From positions 352,001 through 416,000 of the forward strand of contig CBDBCR010000001.1 of the NCBI GenBank assembly GCA_965203465.1: 64,000 nucleotides of DNA, given 5' to 3'. The notes under the pieces are model-generated. The model was not told the DNA's origin, did not search any database, and was given only the letters and a program-made list of their open reading frames with translations. Numbering within the stretch: the first letter of the stretch is position 1; the number at the start of each line of letters is the position of its first letter. Of this stretch, positions 9,001 through 30,110 are shown in pieces. The position numbers were made by a program, and so were the translations under genes. Source of the stretch: Nitrosopumilaceae archaeon (GTDB lineage: Archaea > Thermoproteota > Nitrososphaeria > Nitrososphaerales > Nitrosopumilaceae).

Positions 9001-10058
9001 GAGTTTAAGGCAGCGTTTTATCTGCATCATTTGTCTTCCCTCAACGACGGTTCTGCCGAAAGCACCAAATTCGTGGCTTGCTCCAAGCAGACCATAAGCA
9101 AAATCTCCCCCGAAGATTTGACGGTGCCGGAAGTCCCCACCAAATCATACGCGCTGCTCGCAAAACTATCAGAACGCCCCACATTGGGATCCATGTCGAG
9201 CGATGGATGGCGGGTATCTCTTGCTCCGGGCTTTCACGATGCTAAGGACGCAGACCTGTTCCGGGAAGACGGCAAGGGTTGGCCCGCACTAAAGGGAAAA
9301 GATATCCACCAGTTCAATCCTGCTTTTGCTGCGCCTGATTTCACCGTGGACCGATCCGACGGACTGCGCAGGCTGGGCAAAAAGAGGGTATATGTAGGAC
9401 ACTGCCCGAAATTCCACGAATCGTACATGTTTGTATTCCGAGACATCGCGCGCTCTACCGACATGAGAACTATGATATCGTCAATTATACCTCCGCATAC
9501 GTTTCATACAGCCTCATTACGTAGCGTTATATTGACTCGTAACCACCTTGCTATGTTTGGTGACTTACACAACCGCAAACTTGCACACTTGGCTGGAATA
9601 ATTAACTCCATACCGTTCGACTTTATCGCAAGGGCGAAAACTCAAATGCACATAGCAACCATATTCAAGCACCTGTTCGTCCCCCGCCCCTCAAAACACG
9701 ACGGGAAAATAGCCCACTTGGCAGCCGTTTTGACTGCGGCGTTACGTGGGGGGGGGATCCGTCGTATTTTGGTGCGTTTGCAGATTCGTTTGGCATCAAA
9801 CCCGAGCATCTGCCTCCTGCACGCCGCATAGATATTACCGCCAGACTCGACGCGCTAGTCGCGCACGCCTACGGCCTGTCCAAAGACGAGTACCGGACGG
9901 TGCTGGACTCGTTCAAGTTTGGCGAGGATCCGTCCCTGCGCGAAGCAGACGAAGCGGACTGGTCTGACAACCGGGTGCTGAGAAAATTCTACGGCGAGGT
10001 ACGCAAGGCGGCCATGCCCCACTTTGAGGAGATCGCCAAGGAGGATGGCCACAAATGA
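6040..10058 (+). CDS. Type IIG (Eco57I/DrmMI-like) N6-adenine methyltransferase-TRD protein, frameshifted at a G9 tract (9748-9756)
   Basis: WVILTNG..WRLY, SFYTP, VLDPAMGSGHFL and GNPPW motifs; the typical C-terminal RLDALVAHAYGLSKDEY..VLDSF lies in another frame after the G tract and ends at TGA 10056-10058. Confidence 0.88.
9748..9756 (+). repeat. Poly-G (G9) homopolymer at the frameshift point
   Basis: CGT-GGGGGGGGG-ATCC read directly. Confidence 0.9.
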
Positions 10059-13000
10059 CAGAAGAGCCCATAAGGCGCGACATCATCGACAACGTGACCA
10101 AAGGCATAACGATGCAGAAGATGCTCAATTCGGAGATACCGCGGATCAAAAAGTTCGACATCTCCACGGGGTATTTCGACGTGGCGGGGTACGGCATGCT
10201 GCGCGGCGCGCTGGAGCCGGCAGCGCGCGACGGCTCTTTCGAGATGAGGATGCTCCTGGGCAAGGAGGCGCTGCTGCCGCCGGCCGGCTCTTTCGAGCGG
10301 TACGCCGAGCAGTACCGGCAGGCGCCGGGCGCGGATCCCGACCCGCAGGCGCCGCTAAAGTCGAGCCTCGACGAGGCGGACCTAAAGCCCGAGTCGCTTG
10401 CCAGCATATCGGGCCTCATAGAGCTGCTGGGGCGCCCCAACGTGCGGGTGCGGCTCGGCGCCAGCAGGTTCAACCACTCAAAGTGCTACATACTGGGGGA
10501 CAACTCGGCGTTCATCGGCTCTAGCAACTTCACGGCAGGCGGCATGGTGGGCAACTACGAGCTCAACGCCGGGCTGTACCAGCCGAGCGTCGCCGAGGCC
10601 GCCAGGAAGTGGTTCGACCGCATGTGGGACGCGGCCGAGGACGCAAAAGAGGACATGATCAGCGTCCTGAAAAAGTCAAAGTTCGGCATGCCGCCGGACC
10701 CGCACGAGGTGTACATGAAGATGCTCTACGAAAAGTTCGAGCCGTTCCTAAAGCGGGACGACCGGCCCAAGCGCAAGGACGTACAGCTGGCCTCGTTCCA
10801 GCGGGACGCCGTGAACACGGCCATGCACGTGATCTCCAACTACCGCGGCGCGATCATCGCGGATTCGACGGGGCTGGGCAAGACCAACATGGGGATCGAG
10901 ATAGTCCGGCAGAAGATCCTGGACGAGGGCAGAAAAGTAATGCTGGTGGCGCCGGCCCAGGTCCTGCGCGGCATGTGGGAGGACAAGCTAAAGGACGTCG
11001 ACATATCCGTCCGCCGCATGGTGACCATGGAGTCCCTCGGACGGGCGGACTTCCTGAAAGACGCCAAGCAGTACCGCAACATCGACTTTATCCTGATAGA
11101 CGAGTCGCAGAACTTCCGCTCAAAGACGGCCCAGCGGCGGCTCAACCTGATGAGCCTGCTGCACGTGGGCAAGCCGAAGCAGGTGCTGCTGCTCACGGCC
11201 ACCCCCATCAACAACTCGCTGATGGACCTGTACTACCAGCTCAGCATAGTGACCGCGGGGGACGACCAGTACTTTTGGGACACGGTCGGTATCACGGACC
11301 TGTACAAGCACATGCGCGACGCCACCAACAAGGACCTGCAGCGCGGGCTGGAAAAGATCCAGCAGCTGCTCGACAGCGTGATGATACGCCGGACGCGCTC
11401 GTTCATACGGCAGGTGTACCCGCACGACACCATAAACGGGCAGCCGATAAGGTTCCCCGAGCACGAATACAAGCCGATAAACTACGACCTGGCCGGCCTC
11501 TTCGGCAACGTATTCGAGCGCATCTTCAAGGACATGGGATCCCTCACCATGGCGCCGTACGGGATAGACAGGTACAACAAGTCGCTGCCCGAGGAAAAGA
11601 GAAAAGCCCACGGGACGCTTGCCCGACTGCAGGTGATCCTGCTGCTAAAGAGGTTCGAGTCGAGCGTGGAGGCGGTCCGCATAAGCCTCGGCAACAAGGT
11701 GCGCATGTACGAGCACGTCAGGAGGACGCTGCGCGGGGGCAGGATGCTCCGGGTCCGGGACTTTAACAGGGCGCTCGGCCAGTGGAGCAACCAGGAAATG
11801 GAGAGCGAGGGGGAGGGCGAGGAGGACAGGGAGGCGCAGCTCGTAGAGTCGGTCGAGGCGCTGGCCACCGAAGACGCGGGCGACTACGACACGAAGACCA
11901 TGCTGGCGGACATCGAGGCGGATTTGGAAAAAATGCGCAGCCTGCAAAAAGAGATAGGGCGCATCACGGTCGATACGAAGTTCGACGCTGTCGCCAGGTC
12001 CATACTGGAAGAGCGGGCGCTCGAGAAAGAGGGCGGCAAGGTGCTCGTGTTCACCGAATACACGGCGACCGCAAAGTACGTGCACAAAAAGCTAAAGGGG
12101 GTGTTCCCCGACAAGGAGATACTGCTGATACACGGGCGCACGGATCCGGACGACCGCAGGGAGCGCGTGCGGCGGTTCTCGCCCAAGGCCAACCTGCCAG
12201 AGGACGAAGACCTGGATGGGAAGGAGGCCGACATATTGGTGTCCACCGAGGTACTGGCCGAGGGGCAGAACCTGCAGGACTGCAACTACGTCGTGAACTA
12301 CGACCTGCCGTGGAATCCCATGAGGATAGTGCAGCGGACGGGCAGGATAGACAGGCTGACAACAAAGCACGAGACGGTCCACTCGCGCGCCTGCTTTCCG
12401 GACAAGCAGCTGAACGAAATACTAGAGCTGGTGGCCAAGCTGCTCTCCAAGCTAGACACGGCGGCCGCGGTCCTGGGCTCGGACGTGGTGATACTGGGCA
12501 GGATGCCAAGCTCCAAGATCTACGGCCAGCTGGACGAGGACCTGCGGGCGCTGGTGGGGGCCGACGGGGCCAAGAGCCGCAAGGTAGCCGAGCGCCTCGA
12601 GTCCGAGTCGGACATGATGGCCAGGACGCCGATCAACGAGATCATCGAGCACGTCAAGGAGATAGGGCTCGACGCCATGAGGGAGGTGCCCCTCGGGCGG
12701 CGCAGCGGCAAGCGGGGCGAGGGGCAGAAGGCTGTCTTGGCGTACCTGCAGGACGGGCGCGTCCGCAGGGTGCACTTTGTGATATACGACTATGCGGACG
12801 GCCGCGCCTACGTGCCGGATACGGACACCGAGGCGATCAGGCTGGCCTCGTGCGCGTCCGAGGCGCCCCTGCACCTGCCGATGGACGGAGAAGAGCACCG
12901 CGAATCGTTCGAGGAGCTGCTCCGCATAGACGGGCCGGCGCGGCGGGCCGTGCTCGACAGGGACAGGGAAGGCAGGAAAAAGGTGGCCGATCTGCAGCAA

Positions 13001-13381
13001 AGGAGGAAGCAGCACGACAAAAACACGTACGAGCTCGTATCGGCGCTGGTGGGGGCCGCCATGGACGGGCAGGTGACCCACGAGGAGGCCGACGGGGCGC
13101 GGCGCGTCCTAGAGTCGGCGCACATGAGATCCTGGCCCGCCAAGTCCCGGGAGTTTCTGGAAGAATACAAAAAGGGCGAGGATCCCGCGGCGCTGGCGGC
13201 CAAGATACGAAAGTTCGCGGACAGCATGTACTTTGAGGACGAGGGGGAGGCCCCTCCCCCGAAAGAGCAGGAGGCAAAGCTGAAACTGGTAGGGGCGATC
13301 TTTGTGATGGACGGGTTCGACCCCGGCTTGGGCCGAAAGGGGCTGGAAAAGTACCAGGGCGGCGCGCAAGATCCGGCCTGA
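10055..13381 (+). CDS. PLD-nuclease domain fused to an SNF2-family helicase
   Basis: HSKCY..IGSSNFT..NYELN PLD motif; ADSTGLGKT, DESQ, TATP, EGQNLQ and QRTGRIDR helicase motifs; ATGA overlap with the upstream gene. Confidence 0.92.
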   Translation: MTEEPIRRDIIDNVTKGITMQKMLNSEIPRIKKFDISTGYFDVAGYGMLRGALEPAARDGSFEMRMLLGKEALLPPAGSFERYAEQYRQAPGADPDPQAPLKSSLDEADLKPESLASISGLIELLGRPNVRVRLGASRFNHSKCYILGDNSAFIGSSNFTAGGMVGNYELNAGLYQPSVAEAARKWFDRMWDAAEDAKEDMISVLKKSKFGMPPDPHEVYMKMLYEKFEPFLKRDDRPKRKDVQLASFQRDAVNTAMHVISNYRGAIIADSTGLGKTNMGIEIVRQKILDEGRKVMLVAPAQVLRGMWEDKLKDVDISVRRMVTMESLGRADFLKDAKQYRNIDFILIDESQNFRSKTAQRRLNLMSLLHVGKPKQVLLLTATPINNSLMDLYYQLSIVTAGDDQYFWDTVGITDLYKHMRDATNKDLQRGLEKIQQLLDSVMIRRTRSFIRQVYPHDTINGQPIRFPEHEYKPINYDLAGLFGNVFERIFKDMGSLTMAPYGIDRYNKSLPEEKRKAHGTLARLQVILLLKRFESSVEAVRISLGNKVRMYEHVRRTLRGGRMLRVRDFNRALGQWSNQEMESEGEGEEDREAQLVESVEALATEDAGDYDTKTMLADIEADLEKMRSLQKEIGRITVDTKFDAVARSILEERALEKEGGKVLVFTEYTATAKYVHKKLKGVFPDKEILLIHGRTDPDDRRERVRRFSPKANLPEDEDLDGKEADILVSTEVLAEGQNLQDCNYVVNYDLPWNPMRIVQRTGRIDRLTTKHETVHSRACFPDKQLNEILELVAKLLSKLDTAAAVLGSDVVILGRMPSSKIYGQLDEDLRALVGADGAKSRKVAERLESESDMMARTPINEIIEHVKEIGLDAMREVPLGRRSGKRGEGQKAVLAYLQDGRVRRVHFVIYDYADGRAYVPDTDTEAIRLASCASEAPLHLPMDGEEHRESFEELLRIDGPARRAVLDRDREGRKKVADLQQRRKQHDKNTYELVSALVGAAMDGQVTHEEADGARRVLESAHMRSWPAKSREFLEEYKKGEDPAALAAKIRKFADSMYFEDEGEAPPPKEQEAKLKLVGAIFVMDGFDPGLGRKGLEKYQGGAQDPA

Positions 13382-24633: not shown

Positions 24634-25161
24634 TTGGAGCGGCGCTACTCCAATTCAATGTGGCAGGCCGGCTACAAGATATTGGGCGACGGCAGGTGGT
24701 TTTTCGGGTGCATGGACGACGCCTCGCGCCTGGTGACGGGGTTCGGCCTCGCCGGCGAGCCCTCGGGGGGCCACGCCCTCGGGGTGATCGCGCGGGCCGT
24801 CTCGGAGCGCGGCAGGCCCGCCTCGGTGCTGACCGGCCGCGTGCGCCCGTTCTACGGCGCGGCCGCGACCGAGTTCGAAAAGGGGCTGGCCGCGCTGGGC
24901 GTGCGGCACCTGCTGCCGTCCCCCGGCCTGACGGTGGGCAAGCTGGCCAGGTTCGGCCAGATGCAGCGCAATCTGCCGGGGTTCGAAGAGGCCTCGGCGC
25001 GCGGCCCGGGGCACGTGGGCGGGCCGTTCTGCACCGACGGGCCGCGGGATCCGGTGGAGAGGCTGGTCGAGTGGCACAACGACGCGCTGCACATGTCGCT
25101 GGGCGGGGGCCAGACGCCCGAGCAGGCGTTCGCGAGCAGGGCGGCCCCCCGGGAAGCCTAG
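24634..25161 (+). mobile_element. Degenerate IS481-like integrase-core (rve) domain ORF
   Basis: YSNSMWQ, DDASR, GRPASVLT and HMSL..QTP resemble IS481 transposases; predicted DDE residues replaced; no HTH or terminal repeats seen. Confidence 0.65.
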
Positions 25162-25236
25162 GCGGGGCCCTGCCGGAGCCCGCGCTGCCGCCTGCGCAAA
25201 CGCGCGCCGCTTTTCTGCGGGGGCCTCGGCGGGCCC

Positions 25237-26286
25237 CTACATCCCCCTCATGTCCAGCCCGATCTCTATCCGGTGCTTGCGCGCCTCGTCCAAATCGAAC
25301 GATTCCACGTGCGTCCTGCCGCAAACCTCGTGCATCTGAAAGACGGACACGTATTCCTTCGACGGCGCTATCTCTATGGCGCGTTCGGCCAGCTCGTCGC
25401 TGTGGGTGGCCAGGAATACCTGGTTGCCGTAGTCCCTGCACCCCCTGAGCAGCTCTTCGACTACGTGGTACATCAGCGCCGGGTGCGTGCTGTTCTCCGG
25501 CCCTTCGATGGCCATCGTGCCCCCCCGCAACAGGTGGCTGGACATGGACAGCAGCACGGCGGAGCGGAATCCGTCGCCCACGAGGCTAATGGGCCTCTTG
25601 GCGCCGCTTTCGAAGAACACGTACGTCTCGCCGCCGATCTGCTGTATGTCGATCACCTCTCGGGTATATCCTTTCAGCCTGGAGACCACGTCGCGCATCT
25701 TGCCGGAACTGGACGCCCGGCTGCACAGCTCTTTTTGCGCAAGATCCGGATTTTTCACAAACAGGCTCGAGCCGGCCGCGGCGCCGGAAGGCGCGGTTTC
25801 GGACAGGATGTCTGCGCCGGCTACGTATAGCCTTCCTAGCACGCGGGAGCCGCCGCGGAAATAAAAGTAAAACTCGCGGCGCGCGCCTTTCCGATCCGAC
25901 GCCCCGCCTTGACTACTAGATCCGATCTCTTTCATCCGCCCGGCATCCGGAATCTCCTCCATGTCGTGCAACGATCCGGCCATTTCCAGCGTCTCGACGG
26001 CGCCCGTGTCCAGAACGCCCCTCACCGCGGCGTTCTTCCTGTCGCCGTGGACGATGTAATCCCAGCCTCCGCCGATCTCGACTCTGCGCCCGAGGATCTG
26101 CTCCAGCGTGCTCTCGCCGAACGCGTTCCTGAACATATGCTGCCCGGAGCTCATCAGGGATATCGCCTCCAGGCACGAGGACTTGCCCGCGTTGTTGCGG
26201 CCCACCAGTATGTTGAGGCGGCCCAGCTTGTCCAGCACCACGTCGTCCGCCCCGCGGAACCCCGAGATCCGTATCTGCTTGTACAC
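25237..26286 (-). CDS. ABC-like AAA ATPase (AAA_15/AAA_21 type)
   Basis: ISGFRG, Walker A GRNNAGKS, VGDGFR signature, IEGPENSTHP and ATHS. Confidence 0.88.
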   Translation of the reverse strand: MYKQIRISGFRGADDVVLDKLGRLNILVGRNNAGKSSCLEAISLMSSGQHMFRNAFGESTLEQILGRRVEIGGGWDYIVHGDRKNAAVRGVLDTGAVETLEMAGSLHDMEEIPDAGRMKEIGSSSQGGASDRKGARREFYFYFRGGSRVLGRLYVAGADILSETAPSGAAAGSSLFVKNPDLAQKELCSRASSSGKMRDVVSRLKGYTREVIDIQQIGGETYVFFESGAKRPISLVGDGFRSAVLLSMSSHLLRGGTMAIEGPENSTHPALMYHVVEELLRGCRDYGNQVFLATHSDELAERAIEIAPSKEYVSVFQMHEVCGRTHVESFDLDEARKHRIEIGLDMRGM

Positions 26287-26413
26287 GCGGGCCGCGCCGC
26301 GGACCCGCCTTTAATTTTGTACGGCCCCGGCGGTTCGGGCAGAGCACTTGGGGAACGCGGGCATCCGGGCGTTTTCGGGGCCGTGCCGAAGGCCGGCCGG
26401 CAGGGGACTTTGG

Positions 26414-27799
26414 CTACCCGAAGCGCAGGCTGCCGCAGAAGCAGCCCGGCTTTACGGCCGGCGTGCGGTGGTCGCAGAACTCGTTGGCCACGTCGACGTA
26501 CGAGACCGAGCCGCCCGATCCGCCGTACATGCCCAGCAGCCCGAGGAGCTTGTCGGTGCCCAGGCACGCGGCCCACGTGGTGAGCGTGACCGCCGACGGC
26601 TGGTGCGGCTCGTAGTACCCCGACTCCTCCTTTGCCCTCCTCTGCCCCTCGTCGAGGCACTCGTCTGCCAGCCTCATGCCGTCGATCTGGCCCGTGCACC
26701 ACAGGCACGCCGTGGAAGGGGTGACCAGCTGCGCGCGTATCGTGGCCTCGAACCTGCCTTTCGTGACCACGTTGCAGCCCACGTCGATGAGGGGGCGGTA
26801 GTGCTCCAGCGCCGCGGCGTTGAGGCGGTCCCTGCTCCTCATGCTGTCGGTGCAGCAGATCACCGCGTCCGATTCCATGGCGGCCTCCAGGTGCTCTTTC
26901 CGGCAGACGTCGCCCACCGTCGAGCGCACCTCCGAGTCGGAGAACGATTCCAGGTGCTCGCGCACCACGTCCGCCTTGGCGGCCCCCACGTGCCTCCTGG
27001 AGGATCCGTGGAGCCTGCTGACGTTGCTCTCCTCGACCGAGTCGGGATCGATCAGCCTAATGCGCCGCACCCCCAGCCGCGCAAGCTGCACGGCCACGCC
27101 GGATCCCACGCCGCCGGCGCCCACCACGCACACGTCCAGGCCGCGCACGCGCCCGTGCGTCTCCGGGCCCAGCATGGACGCCTGGCGCGCGTAGACGCCG
27201 CCGGCCGCTCCGTCCCGCCGGCACGGCGCGCCCCGGTCCGCGCGCCCCAGCGTCTTTCCCACCACGTCTATCCTGGATACCGTGTGGTCGCTTCCGCCGT
27301 GGTGCGCCACGGCGTGCATGCCCGCGCCGCTCACCACCGCGCTTGCGGCGGGGCGGCCGTCGAGCAGCTCGGCCATGTCGCGGAAGAACGTCCTGTTGGC
27401 GCTCTCGTCCGTGCCGCTGAACGACGGGGGGTGGTCGGGGGACGGGTGCGTGTGGACGAACAGCAGGCACGAGCCGGCCCTGTCGGCCTCTTCGACCGCC
27501 CTGTTGAGGTACGCCGACGACGGGCTGATGCTGCCGGGCCCCCGCTCGGACCACGAGCCAGGCCCGGGCAGCACGGCTTCCCTGACCAGAAGGCGCTGCC
27601 CTGATCCCGACGCGTGCCAGTCGGCCCTCAGATAGCACCCGTTTTCGAGCGGGCTCCCCTCCTCCAGGAACGCGGACACGCGCTCGTACAGGCCAGACGG
27701 GAACGCTATGGCCCACTCTTGGCGGGGCGCGCCTTTGGATTTTTCGTCCTTCCGGGCTGGCGCCGCGGGGCGGCCCGGCCGTCTGCTAAAAAGCGGCAC
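26414..27799 (-). CDS. JAB metallopeptidase fused to a ThiF/E1-like ubiquitin-activating enzyme
   Basis: E...HTHP....FSGTD JAB motif; GAGGVGS, DPDSVEESNVSR, CTDS, CLWC and terminal CFC E1 motifs. Confidence 0.92.
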   Translation of the reverse strand: MPLFSRRPGRPAAPARKDEKSKGAPRQEWAIAFPSGLYERVSAFLEEGSPLENGCYLRADWHASGSGQRLLVREAVLPGPGSWSERGPGSISPSSAYLNRAVEEADRAGSCLLFVHTHPSPDHPPSFSGTDESANRTFFRDMAELLDGRPAASAVVSGAGMHAVAHHGGSDHTVSRIDVVGKTLGRADRGAPCRRDGAAGGVYARQASMLGPETHGRVRGLDVCVVGAGGVGSGVAVQLARLGVRRIRLIDPDSVEESNVSRLHGSSRRHVGAAKADVVREHLESFSDSEVRSTVGDVCRKEHLEAAMESDAVICCTDSMRSRDRLNAAALEHYRPLIDVGCNVVTKGRFEATIRAQLVTPSTACLWCTGQIDGMRLADECLDEGQRRAKEESGYYEPHQPSAVTLTTWAACLGTDKLLGLLGMYGGSGGSVSYVDVANEFCDHRTPAVKPGCFCGSLRFG

Positions 27800-27801
27800 G
27801 C

Positions 27802-28194
27802 TCAGTCACCGTTCTCGAACCTCCGGTCCACGTATTCCATGAAACTGGCCAGGTCGTCCCTGGCGGGATCCCATCCGCAGTCGGCGTACGGGTGGATGCT
27901 CCACTGCAGCCATTCTTTCCCCATGTGGGCCACCGTAAAGGTGCCCTCCGGCCGCCCGTCGCCCTTGAGCAGGGTGTCGCACGGGGTGAAAAACATGTCG
28001 AACGGGGTCTTGGGGTAGTGTACGGTGTTTGTGATCATCACGCTAGTCCTGTCCCTGTTGTACCGTGCAGACCGTATGGGATAGTCCGCAAACACGACGT
28101 ACACCATCTCGTTTTCCGCGCGCACCACGGTGCCCCGTAGGCCCCGCCTGCCCTCGAACTCTTTTACCTCGCCGAGCAGCTGCTGCGGGATCAT
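27802..28194 (-). CDS. Prokaryotic E2-like protein (Prok-E2 family E)
   Basis: YN...YPKTPFDMFF...WLQWSIH...WDPARDDL pattern; sits between the Ubl and E1 genes. Confidence 0.85.
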   Translation of the reverse strand: MIPQQLLGEVKEFEGRRGLRGTVVRAENEMVYVVFADYPIRSARYNRDRTSVMITNTVHYPKTPFDMFFTPCDTLLKGDGRPEGTFTVAHMGKEWLQWSIHPYADCGWDPARDDLASFMEYVDRRFENGD

Positions 28195-28451
28195 GCGCCG
28201 TACGTGTTGCTCCTTCGTATCGCGCGCAACTGCATGCCCGGCGTGACCGAAACTTCGTGCTCCCTGTCAAGCGGCTCCCCGCCGACCCCCACGACGAACA
28301 GGTCGTATTCGTTGATCTCGCTGTCCGGATATCCGGCCTTTTCGAGCAGCTCCGCCACTGTGGCCTGCCCGCCGGGGCCCAGACTGACGGTCTTTTTGTT
28401 TATTTTTATCTCGACGGCCGGGTTTTCGCTCGGCGCGTCCACGTTGCTCAT
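28191..28451 (-). CDS. Ubiquitin-like (beta-grasp, multi-ubiquitin type) protein
   Basis: IKINKKTV..ATVAELLEKAG..YDLFV...EVSVTPGMQL pattern; ends NTYG-A; ATGA overlap with E2. Confidence 0.82.
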   Translation of the reverse strand: MSNVDAPSENPAVEIKINKKTVSLGPGGQATVAELLEKAGYPDSEINEYDLFVVGVGGEPLDREHEVSVTPGMQLRAIRRSNTYGA

Positions 28452-28472
28452 TGGGAAGCGTGCGGAGGCCGC

Positions 28473-28503
28473 GTTAATATTTCTTTTAACATTGCATATT
28501 TAA
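28473..28503. promoter_or_regulatory. AT-rich divergent promoter region with the inverted repeat GTTAA-N8-TTAAC
   Basis: Lies between the divergent starts at 28451 (-) and 28528 (+). Confidence 0.45.
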
Positions 28504-28527
28504 GCCCGAAGTTTCACGCCCGCGGCG

Positions 28528-28866
28528 TTGGATCCGGCCGGTTTCGATCAAAGCTCCGTCTTGGTAAGCTCGTCCATACTGGCGGGCCTGCTCGGTGCGG
28601 GGTTTTTTGCGGCCCAGCAGCTTGCCCGCGGCACGTATTCGGATCCAAGGCCGACTATAATGCCCTTGTACGCGTTCGGCCTGCTCTCGGTAATCTTTCC
28701 GTTCGCGATTATAATGGCCGTGATCGCCGGGCTGTACCACGCGTATCTTCACTTTGCGCTGCTTTCTGGCATGCTTGCGTGCGTTGGACTGTATTTGCGC
28801 CTCTTGTACAAAATGCGCTACGACGAGTATTCGTACGGAGCGTGGAGCGACAATACGACGCGCTGA
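28528..28866 (+). CDS. Small multi-pass membrane protein
   Basis: Three to four hydrophobic helices. Confidence 0.6.
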   Translation: MDPAGFDQSSVLVSSSILAGLLGAGFFAAQQLARGTYSDPRPTIMPLYAFGLLSVIFPFAIIMAVIAGLYHAYLHFALLSGMLACVGLYLRLLYKMRYDEYSYGAWSDNTTR

Positions 28867-28875
28867 CCCACAGCG

Positions 28876-29133
28876 TCAGGCCATGTCCCTGCGCTCTACT
28901 ATCATGTCCTGCATGCTTTTGAGATCGTCCCGGACTTCGGTAAAGTTTTTCGCGATATGGTCAAAGAGCACGATCCCGAACTCGTACTCTTTCGTCTTTA
29001 GGATCTGATCCAGCGCGCGGCGGGCGATCCTGAGGTGGTCTTTTCCGTCGGGGTTTTCCGACCTGATCTCCCTCATGCGGCGCATGGTCAGATTCAGCCT
29101 CCTCTCGTCGAGCACGGACATGCTTTCGCTCAC
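28876..29133 (-). CDS. Hypothetical helical protein
   Basis: 85-aa ORF with protein-like composition and AT-rich upstream sequence. Confidence 0.6.
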   Translation of the reverse strand: MSESMSVLDERRLNLTMRRMREIRSENPDGKDHLRIARRALDQILKTKEYEFGIVLFDHIAKNFTEVRDDLKSMQDMIVERRDMA

Positions 29134-29258
29134 GCCTCAACGGCCGTCCGTTGGCAAATATATCTTGCGCAAGGGCCGTGCCCGGACCGCCATGCGCGCA
29201 GCGGAGGAATCCAAGCCGCCTCTAAAGCAATTAATACGGCCGGGCGGGGGCCGGGGCC

Positions 29259-29747
29259 GTGTACAGCCCAGGCGGGACGGTCGACACGCTCGGCCTCCTA
29301 TTCGACAAGCTCCAGTCGCTCTTCGACGAATCGCAGGGCTACTACGAATCCTTCCTAGACACAAACAACCTGTACAAGCAGGGCAAGCTGTCCGACAAGG
29401 AGTTTTTCCAAAAGCTGGGCGACTACGTGGTGGCATATTCCGCACTCGAGTTCCTCGCCGTAAAGGTGCTCTTTGAGGTCCGCAAGTCGCTCGGGCCCGT
29501 CCAGACGCAGTCGCCGGGCCTCATGCCGGGCGTGGGGCAGCCGGGTCCGGCCGCCGGCCCGCATCCGGGCTCCGCCTCCAACCCGGTCGGGGGCCCGCCC
29601 GGCATCGTCTCGGCGGCAGAGGGCTTCGGCAGGCCGGGGACCCTGCCCGCGCCGGACAGGTCCGCGGATCCGGGGTGCGGCTCGTGCGGGGCCGAGCTGC
29701 GGGCCGGCGCCAAATTCTGCACAAAGTGCGGCGCGCGCGCGGCCTAG
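29259..29747 (+). CDS. Zinc-ribbon domain protein
   Basis: C-terminal CGSCG..AKFCTKCG. Confidence 0.85.
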   Translation: MYSPGGTVDTLGLLFDKLQSLFDESQGYYESFLDTNNLYKQGKLSDKEFFQKLGDYVVAYSALEFLAVKVLFEVRKSLGPVQTQSPGLMPGVGQPGPAAGPHPGSASNPVGGPPGIVSAAEGFGRPGTLPAPDRSADPGCGSCGAELRAGAKFCTKCGARAA

Positions 29748-29783
29748 AAACCAATATACGTAAACCCGGCGCCGCCGCGGCCG

Positions 29784-30110
29784 TTGAAGGTCTTTGACGG
29801 CAAAAAGGCGGCGCAGGAATACATGTCGGCCCACACGCTGGCCTTTTCGACGCCCGAGATGACGCTGACCCGGTTTGCAATGTGGCTGGGCGACGCGGTG
29901 CCCGACCCGTCGGATCCTTCAAAGACGATGCCGCGCACCGACTCTTTTCTGACGGACGGGCGGCCCTCGCAGGTGGTCGACGACCGCTACCAGCCCAGCG
30001 GGGCCGTGCTCCACACCGGGCCGGCCGGGGGGCGCTTCTGCCCCGAGTGCGGCGCGGCAGTCTCCAAAGAGGCCAAGTTCTGCCCCGAGTGCGGCAGCGG
30101 CCAGGACTAG
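29784..30110 (+). CDS. Zinc-ribbon domain protein
   Basis: FCPECG..AKFCPECG. Confidence 0.85.
   Translation: MKVFDGKKAAQEYMSAHTLAFSTPEMTLTRFAMWLGDAVPDPSDPSKTMPRTDSFLTDGRPSQVVDDRYQPSGAVLHTGPAGGRFCPECGAAVSKEAKFCPECGSGQD

Follow-up and report, generated by a model that had tools for sequence, protein, structure and literature searches.

Does an ammonia-oxidising archaeon hold a pathway for protein conjugation of the bacterial ubiquitination-like (Bub) kind, and if so, what might it be used for? This question is raised by three closely spaced genes within a stretch of 64,000 nucleotides from a Nitrosopumilaceae archaeon, here called the window. All three are located on the minus strand. According to the list of open reading frames (ORFs) they comprise a gene for a ubiquitin-like protein (Ubl; 28191..28451, 86 aa, ATG start), a gene for an E2-like protein (27802..28194, 130 aa, ATG start) and a gene for a JAB peptidase fused to an E1 domain (JAB-E1 or JAB::E1; 26414..27799, 461 aa, GTG start). 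An initial annotation, made from the DNA letters and their translations, took them for a complete Bub-type operon, horizontally acquired and probably antiviral. Our analysis leads to a more qualified reading: a working three-gene module for Ubl conjugation that belongs with Bub but is reduced, lacking the serine protease BubE, to which we assign a probability of roughly 0.65. Taken by itself, the description as a Bub-type conjugation machine is very probably right, and for an antiviral use the chances are about even.

The three genes and their products

The ORFs and their junctions confirm the tight coupling of the genes that had been noticed initially. The stop codon of the Ubl gene overlaps the start of the E2 gene in an ATGA (GCATGATCC), and a gap of 2 nt separates the E2 stop from the JAB-E1 start (TGA GC GTG). 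The coding bias of the three frames is that of the host, with a G+C content at third codon positions (GC3) of 0.80–0.92, and the G+C content of the operon (0.58–0.72) shows no contrast to the flanks. The 76-nt intergenic region between the Ubl gene and a divergent membrane-protein gene (28452..28527) is a candidate promoter region. Here an AT-rich stretch of about 30 nt, located 20–50 nt 5' of the Ubl ATG in a background of 65–70% GC, may represent an archaeal TATA/BRE promoter; a sigma-70 promoter/terminator scan is not applicable to archaea and its result was not used. The host genome (2.26 Mb in 4 contigs, 96.9% complete) contains a match to archaeal amoA (1.9e-115) just outside the window, which supports the designation of the host as an ammonia-oxidising archaeon; the bacterial ammonia monooxygenase model gave no match anywhere.

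The window Ubl alone had no match in Pfam; its relatives do match Multi_ubiq. When a profile of the Ubl family was compared with the PDB, it found the multi-ubiquitin proteins of E. coli ZDHYS365, Methylobacterium and Citrobacter (9.5e-11 to 2.6e-6), the best match being 9cd2 from E. coli ZDHYS365 (9.5e-11). The AF2 model (pLDDT 79.3) consists of a single beta-grasp domain. Its top six matches in VIA are all multi-ubiquitin Ubls of Bub or Bil systems (Z 9.4–8.0), and ubiquitin and NEDD8 rank below them (Z <=7.8); Foldseek returned nothing at E<=0.001 for this model, with a best E of 2e-3 or worse. The sole invariant column among the Ubl relatives is Gly85 (26 of 26 rows; codon 28199..28197). 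Fifteen of the 26 rows stop exactly at this glycine and 11 extend by 1–6 residues. In the window one residue follows, Ala86, which in one natural population is replaced by Val.

For the E2 protein, Pfam Prok-E2_E was matched with E=3.1e-14 (53 bits, cut-off 25). A profile of 34 relatives, run against the whole PDB, found Citrobacter BubB and nothing else (1.3e-24). The AlphaFold model (pLDDT 95.3) has BubB as its best Foldseek match (9eae_C, E=6.4e-7, TM 0.78, root mean square deviation 1.9 A), with ordinary E2s such as Ubc13 ranking next at TM ~0.5; the UBC fold, on which the initial annotation had made its case depend, is thus recovered. The candidate active site consists of Ser99 (27900..27898), His101 and Asp66, which align with the Ser, His and Asp of Citrobacter BubB. 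Invariant residues in the 34-row alignment, from which locus L078 and near-duplicates are omitted, are P61, D66, S99, H101 and W108, and the motif S-x-H is kept in 39 of 40 rows, L078 being the sole exception. Neither of the two cysteines of the window E2 (72 and 106) is conserved.

The 461-aa protein combines a JAB/JAMM peptidase domain (27230..27715, minus strand, about residues 29–190) with an E1 adenylation domain (26414..27202, minus strand, about residues 200–461 plus stop; Pfam ThiF, E=3.9e-31). Its best PDB match is Citrobacter BubCD (9ea4, 3.4e-17), with both domains aligned over residues 64–347. The JAMM residues E52, H116-x-H118, S128 and D131 are kept in 38–39 of 39 aligned relatives. 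The E1 part holds R205, G227-x-G-G, D251, K275 and D339 as well as a zinc motif, C365-x-x-C368/C453-x-C455. In its crossover loop Tyr395 (26617..26615) is invariant in 38 of 38 rows, canonical Bradyrhizobium BubCD included and one further, truncated row left out. The only cysteine in the loop of the window protein, Cys381, is Leu or Phe in the nearest relatives. PADLOC models named E1-E2 match residues 217–370, that is the nucleotide-binding core only. The initial description of the motifs as intact is borne out: Tyr395, S99/H101/D66, the JAMM residues and Gly85 are all conserved.

For Bub itself, the main text of a preprint describes from structure and mutation the use of a Tyr in the E1 crossover loop, Y370, together with an E2 site of Ser-x-His plus Asp (S333, H335 and D299) and JAB residues that cut after the conserved Gly; in mutants, Y370, S333/H335 and the JAB residues were found to be required (bioRxiv 10.1101/2024.11.21.623953). 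Going by what is known biochemically of Bub from Citrobacter and E. coli, trimming of Ala86 after Gly85 of the Ubl would be the task of the JAB domain, the E1 domain would adenylate Gly85 with ATP, and the crossover-loop Tyr395 would accept the Ubl as an oxyester. The next acceptor would be Ser99 of the E2, with help from His101 and Asp66, and lysines on target proteins would then receive the Ubl from the E2 with no E3 involved. Since JAB is the sole peptidase present, removal of the tag would fall to it as well. The trimming of Ala86 and the biological role discussed below are likewise proposals.

Comparison with known systems and the JAB-E1 tree

Our reference for Type I Bub is Citrobacter sp. 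RHBSTW-00271 with BubAB, BubCD and BubE (6E.1/DUF6527; PDB 9ea4, 9eae, 9ea8; Ye, Gong, Chambers, Corbett). The window operon shares with it the order Ubl, E2, JAB::E1 and the lack of an E3, a JAB fused to an E1 whose crossover loop keeps an invariant Tyr and lacks a conserved Cys, an E2 in which Ser-x-His and Asp sit in a BubB-type UBC fold, and a beta-grasp Ubl whose conserved terminal Gly is predicted to need trimming by the JAB domain. It differs in that Ubl and E2 are separate genes, whereas canonical Bradyrhizobium has a fusion of 289–299 aa, in that the Ubl has one beta-grasp domain only, and in that the E1 keeps the CxxC...CxC zinc motif, unlike BubCD of the Bradyrhizobium type. Furthermore, BubE (a DUF6527/PF20137 serine protease) is missing, which sets the operon apart from Type I as well as from Type II. 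The identity of JAB-E1 to canonical bacterial loci is about 25–31%, and the host here is an archaeon. With Type II Bub (6E.2; BubA, BubBD and BubE of E. coli ZDHYS365) the operon has the Ubl family in common, 9cd2 being the top structural and profile match. However, in Type II the E2 is fused to the E1, there is no JAB, and BubE is present. For Type II the main text of the preprint gives the same Tyr/Ser oxyester logic (bioRxiv 10.1101/2024.11.21.623953). The claim of a complete Bub-type operon therefore stands as far as the homology to BubA, BubB and BubCD and the Ser/Tyr residues are concerned, but not for the gene set, as Ubl and E2 are unfused and the locus has no DUF6527 gene.

In the definition given by the main text of the same preprint, all Bub operons have BubE and all of Type I have the Ubl-E2 fusion BubAB (bioRxiv 10.1101/2024.11.21.623953). 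The operon set of the companion Bub preprint was, according to its main text, drawn from DUF6527-containing operons, so that BubE-less forms were missed by design. A lineage without BubE thus widens the published definition, built, as these main texts have it, only from operons with DUF6527. Neither archaeal Bub nor Thaumarchaeota are mentioned in the main texts of the Bub preprints, the Bil preprint or a 2024 review, although the supplementary table of 544 operons of the Bub preprints might list archaeal or unfused entries. In these main texts no thaumarchaeal example turned up, in line with the initial annotation.

Other prokaryotic systems are more distant. Bil (BilABCD) likewise has a Ubl, E2, JAB and E1 and no E3, and its Ubl fold is related (8u38, Z 8.7). 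As described in the main text of the Bub preprint, Bil has a separate JAB, a large E1 of the layout IAD-AAD-CYS and Cys thioester chemistry, whereas the window E1 is a single adenylation domain fused to JAB, with Tyr and Ser in place of Cys. Cap2/Cap3 of Type II CBASS (cyclic oligonucleotide-based antiphage signalling system) share an E1 adenylation domain with a JAB partner and the setting in defence; Cap2, however, is an E2-E1 fusion whose substrate for conjugation is the cyclase itself, and a free Ubl is lacking. The SAMP/UbaA (small archaeal modifier protein) and the Caldiarchaeum/Asgard systems resemble the window operon in having an archaeal beta-grasp modifier, an E1 of the ThiF fold and a JAMM peptidase. 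In the Caldiarchaeum type, the E2 works with a Cys and a RING E3 takes part. In contrast, the window E2 has no conserved Cys, and no RING was among the Pfam matches of the neighbours. SAMP/UbaA has no E2, whereas the window operon has a dedicated one, and the UbaA equivalog of NCBIfam (NF047750) reaches 45.9 bits on JAB-E1 against a cut-off of 450. The distinction from both archaeal systems, drawn from the beginning, is thereby upheld.

The same data bear on the idea of a sulfur carrier comparable to ThiS, MoaD or SAMP, where thiocarboxylation and not conjugation would be the fate of the small protein. The ThiF/MoeB fold of the E1 and its retained CxxC...CxC zinc motif would suit such a function. 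However, all three E1 equivalogs stay far under their cut-offs (besides UbaA, ThiF with 78.8 bits against 275 and MoeB with 53.9 against 376), the crossover loop has no conserved Cys, and the operon includes a dedicated E2 and a fused JAB peptidase. Moreover, Pfam scans of the neighbouring ORFs gave no RING/E3, no rhodanese domain and no other sulfur-transfer family, as the initial annotation had already observed for E3/RING and sulfur-transfer genes. A sulfur carrier is hardly credible under these circumstances.

A careful maximum-likelihood tree of 54 JAB-E1 rows, which is unrooted, places the window protein with its paralog from the same genome (98/92), then with genome G089 (95/80) and then with a Cenarchaeum bin (100/100). 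This clade is sister to 11 more archaeal rows (100/99), followed by one Acidimicrobiaceae row (100/97). Two other archaeal clades stand beside Chloroflexota rows, one with 88/88 and the other, less surely, with 73/54. Altogether, 30 rows from archaea, Chloroflexota and Acidimicrobiaceae are split from 24 BubE-bearing bacterial rows with 99/95. The phylogeny against bacterial homologs that had been suggested as a check thus puts the window into the BubE-less half. A single clade of all 26 archaeal rows, a group chosen after the tree had been seen, was rejected by the approximately unbiased (AU) test (p=0.0029). The window operon is therefore a member of a BubE-less lineage common to Nitrosopumilaceae, Chloroflexota and one Acidimicrobiaceae bin. 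Since the tree is unrooted, no donor can be named. Nearest in it are operons linked to a TIR gene, from Nitrosopumilaceae and Chloroflexota, with the same three unfused genes and no BubE; no paper on such operons was found. They add a TIR protein of 265–283 aa and often a CARF-wHTH regulator, whereas the sub-clade of the window has an 85-aa helical protein (hel85) and a membrane protein instead.

With regard to horizontal acquisition, the patchy spread and the tree agree with what had been proposed. However, composition is fully host-like, so that the acquisition must be an older one. Nor is it a single isolated import: the genome holds three such loci and a Type II Bub operon, and the lineage is found in 20 of 400 other genomes of the family.

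Relatives, further copies and the possible role

A protein search with JAB-E1 yielded 116 relatives, of which about 80 are metagenomic with 29–68% identity, followed by bacterial ThiF-family proteins at about 29%. Scanning genome contigs with the single JAB-E1 sequence gave no relative, whereas an alignment-based scan did find relatives; the closest named relatives of the operon come from Cenarchaeum and Nitrosopumilaceae bins. In viral contigs 53 loci were hit, all by the nucleotide-binding part of the E1 only (query about 181–382), and no JAB-E1 relative was found there. Within the family, Prok-E2_E occurs in 20 of 400 other genomes (19 of 399 without the unpublished genome G077) and in 10 of 27 genera, but is absent from all four genomes of the window's own genus. 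Sampling across the phylum gave 2 positive genomes among 56 of the family and none among 344 of other families. Of the 27 Prok-E2_E loci recovered in the family, 24 have JAB-E1 next to the E2, and the highest copy numbers are those of the window genome and of G071 and G089 (3.2–3.9 Mb genomes). DUF6527 is present in 13 of 400 family genomes; besides the window genome it is found together with Prok-E2_E only in G371, 14 kb apart. None of the archaeal E2 plus JAB-E1 loci examined has DUF6527/PF20137 beside it.

For a survey of gene context, hidden Markov models were run over 142 related loci from genomes and metagenomes. Of these loci, 124 are not near-identical, and 107 have the E2 directly 5' of a full-length JAB-E1. 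In the 96 loci with at least 1 kb of downstream sequence, a sample biased because the query profile was built from the archaeal clade, BubE follows in 51, a TIR gene in 12, neither in 33 and both in none; a CARF-wHTH regulator lies upstream in 0 of the 51 BubE loci, 4 of the 12 TIR loci and 10 of the 33 others. This regulator matches PADLOC CARF3 (6e-57) and in relatives is often divergent from the operon. In the 17 loci from other genomes of the family, TIR is present 8 times and CARF 5 times. The TIR proteins (265–283 aa) are orthologous over their full length and are encoded directly 3' of JAB-E1 (L101, L103–L107, L110, L111, L140, L145–L147 and L016). Single loci have other genes downstream of JAB-E1, namely a dCTP-deaminase defence gene (1e-149), TCAD9 kinase-like genes or a DAC cyclase.

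Two observations may be added here. The TIR protein consists of an N-terminal domain without known family and a C-terminal TIR domain with an invariant Glu in its core; a few residues from its C-terminus there are an invariant Tyr and Gly, resembling the ...Y/F-G end of the Ubls. The DAC (diadenylate cyclase) genes with DACNG/DACNH sensor domains, or TCAD9 kinase-like genes, follow JAB-E1 in three metagenomic relatives without BubE or TIR (L139, 3436–5220; L144, 3413–4957; L161, 1693–3294).

The window genome itself contains further copies. A paralogous operon at 882–885 kb of contig C1 has a JAB-E1 of 63% identity and its own copies of the membrane and helical genes, followed downstream by sugar epimerases. 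A third locus, at about 199.9–202.5 kb of contig C3 (L004, L120), has an E2 that is frameshifted over two frames and in which the His of S-x-H is replaced; upstream there are only remnants of a CARF-wHTH gene, and the Ubl still ends in ...YG. This third Ubl-E2-JAB::E1 locus appears to be decaying. In addition, there is a complete Type II Bub operon on C1 (729355–732531, L001), whose Ubl has 81 aa, its E2-E1 fusion 400 aa (NF004805, 469.8 bits) and its BubE 133 aa (DUF6527, 1.6e-22). The only PF20137 match of the genome is located in this Type II operon, about 350 kb from the window operon. The Type II operon adjoins a gene for a TcmP three-Cys-motif partner (7.7e-62).

At least 60% of the sampled words of positions 25200–29200 are present in 13 sequencing runs from five studies, none of which is RNA; some are labelled as sponge or marine metagenome. 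Contigs from other studies show 8–17 differences over the operon and no insertion or deletion inside the three genes. The only such length differences lie in the spacer before a neighbouring ATPase gene (a 7-nt polymorphism). Could the operon then be an inactive relic that is no longer used? Its sister copy in the same genome is visibly decaying, 6 of the 10 population differences within the operon, among those listed, change the amino acid, and there is no RNA among the runs. Yet all catalytic residues are intact, the start/stop coupling is preserved, no frameshift occurs in the contigs from other studies, and the E2 model has a pLDDT of 95. The state of a relic is thus very improbable.

As to the role of the module, conflict and defence or a related stress response is most likely, because the lineage is patchy, has moved between domains and in its relatives is coupled to TIR, CARF and other immune-type genes. 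In the window, an ATPase of the AbiL/PDC-M38A kind and an integrase fragment adjoin the operon, and host-like codon composition and intact frames in several natural populations speak for its maintenance. Judged from its gene content and relatives, the operon is probably part of an accessory, conflict-related gene pool and a working conjugation module, and a defence role for this locus is plausible in view of the TIR, CARF and other partners of its relatives. The initial suggestion of a probably antiviral system gains from this context in relatives (TIR, CARF, dCTP deaminase), but from nothing in the window locus itself.

A working Ubl module might alternatively serve purposes other than defence, as a regulatory modification of the housekeeping or stress type, tied for instance to life in a sponge host. 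The window locus without TIR and CARF, its housekeeping flanks (RNR, rpS19e and a conserved zinc-ribbon pair), the accumulation of copies in this genome and in those of G071 and G089 and the sponge label of some runs would fit such a role, and the companion Bub preprint asks in its main text that roles beyond antiphage immunity be considered. However, the presence of Prok-E2_E in 20 of 400 other genomes of the family and in none of four from the same genus is the pattern of an accessory gene and not that of a needed regulator, and the coupling of relatives to TIR, CARF and dCTP deaminase points away from housekeeping as well. We regard a purely non-defensive function as unlikely.

The slot behind JAB-E1 deserves attention also in the window, where it is occupied by an ATPase gene on the same strand (25237..26286, minus, 349 aa), 127 nt 3' of the operon. 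The protein matches Pfam AAA_15 (2.2e-19) and AAA_21 (2.2e-17) and the PADLOC models PDC-M38A (2.5e-27) and AbiLi (1.5e-25). Together with Ubl, E2 and JAB-E1 this ATPase could make up a system of four genes, in which it would take the place of the relatives' TIR and act as sensor or effector. Strand, distance and the two defence models are in favour, as is the variability of this slot, which in relatives holds effector-like genes. However, a homolog of the ATPase is found in 0 of the 142 related loci, the paralogous operon of the same genome has sugar epimerases there, and an AT-rich stretch precedes the ATPase start in a spacer that varies by 7 nt. A four-gene system is for these reasons quite improbable. 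No nuclease or second component adjoins the ATPase, which may be the orphaned half of another defence system.

Several points weigh against the reading as a working, BubE-less module with a part in conflict. The Prok-JAB match stays below the Pfam cut-off (E=0.0039, 17.5 bits against 25). The TIR gene and the CARF regulator are absent from the window locus, a search of the genome for TIR homologs gave none, and the adjacent ATPase lacks conservation as a partner; the locus sample behind the TIR and BubE counts is biased. The decay of the third copy means that such operons can be lost, and amino acid changes are among the population differences. Finally, even for Bub itself the main text of the preprint draws the biological role only from context (bioRxiv 10.1101/2024.11.21.623953).

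Taking the lineage as a whole, we tentatively propose, at odds somewhat short of even, a third type of Bub pathway, with unfused Ubl and E2, no BubE and JAB as the sole peptidase. It would have been passed between Chloroflexota/Actinomycetota and ammonia-oxidising archaea and its part in immunity might be to sense or to regulate, with an effector that can be swapped: TIR in many relatives, a different gene in others and hel85 in the sub-clade of the window. If true, Archaea would gain their first Tyr/Ser-oxyester Ubl conjugation pathway, and Bub its first lineage in which an immune effector can be identified. No Ubl cascades other than Bub are known to use oxyesters in place of thioesters as intermediates, and the lineage would bring chemistry of this type to ammonia oxidisers, organisms of global importance about whose antiviral defences little is known. 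The TIR- and CARF-linked members offer a handle on function, namely on what is tagged and whether tagging switches an NADase. The window locus alone adds less, as a reduced member of the lineage without effector.

Genomic setting of the operon

Upstream of the operon, two genes are candidates for accessory functions. The membrane protein of 112 aa (28528..28866, plus strand) has hydrophobic segments at about residues 10–29, 44–72 and 74–94, as predicted from hydropathy. A paralog adjoins the paralogous operon (28–36% identity), and a weak match lies 5' of the operon of the Cenarchaeum bin. Convergent with it is hel85 (28876..29133, minus strand, 85 aa), of which a paralog (49% identity) also adjoins the paralogous operon. 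Homologs are found beside the operon in G089 and 7.5 kb from the operon in G052, both operons being of the sister clade; none was found in G014, G061 and G071, three genomes without an operon of the sub-clade. There was no match for hel85 in Pfam, PADLOC or NCBIfam, and a search of a 5.8-billion protein set returned hel85 itself only. Hel85 travels with the operon sub-clade of the window and is a candidate accessory gene.

Three genomes of the same genus and one of a neighbouring genus share with the window the gene order thiolase, OB, NrdD-like, RNR, rpS19e, ADH. In these relatives the gap between RNR and rpS19e measures 2.3–2.7 kb and holds a 394-aa gene and Nep1. In the window it measures 5.5 kb and contains an integrase fragment, the ATPase gene, the operon, the membrane gene, hel85 and a pair of zinc-ribbon genes, none of which had a tblastn match in the same stretch of the four relatives; a tblastx comparison of the gaps with the window was discarded, since in DNA this rich in GC it yielded nothing but compositional noise. 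The 394-aa gene is located on another contig of the window genome. As the contents of the gap differ and the 394-aa and zinc-ribbon genes sit elsewhere, this is a rearrangement junction and not a clean insertion.

The left edge of the non-syntenic segment is formed by the integrase-core (rve) fragment (24652..25158, plus strand; Pfam rve, E=1.2e-4, below cut-off). It has five paralogs in the genome, two of them 5–17 kb from the paralogous operon, and genome G194 has a full-length homolog at a distance of about 3 kb from its operon. The two zinc-ribbon genes (29259..30110, plus strand) were considered as partners of the operon and rejected: the first one, zr162, is conserved, sits elsewhere in relatives and is single-copy in five of them, and it is kept even in two without a Prok-E2_E match. 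The pair flanks a Bub-like operon here and in G089 (L113, 7873–9160), in different surroundings, which may be a coincidence or reflect a preferred site of rearrangement. Further away in the window, at 10055..13381 (plus strand), a protein of 1108 aa combines a PLD-like nuclease with an SNF2/helicase core, an architecture of the defence type.

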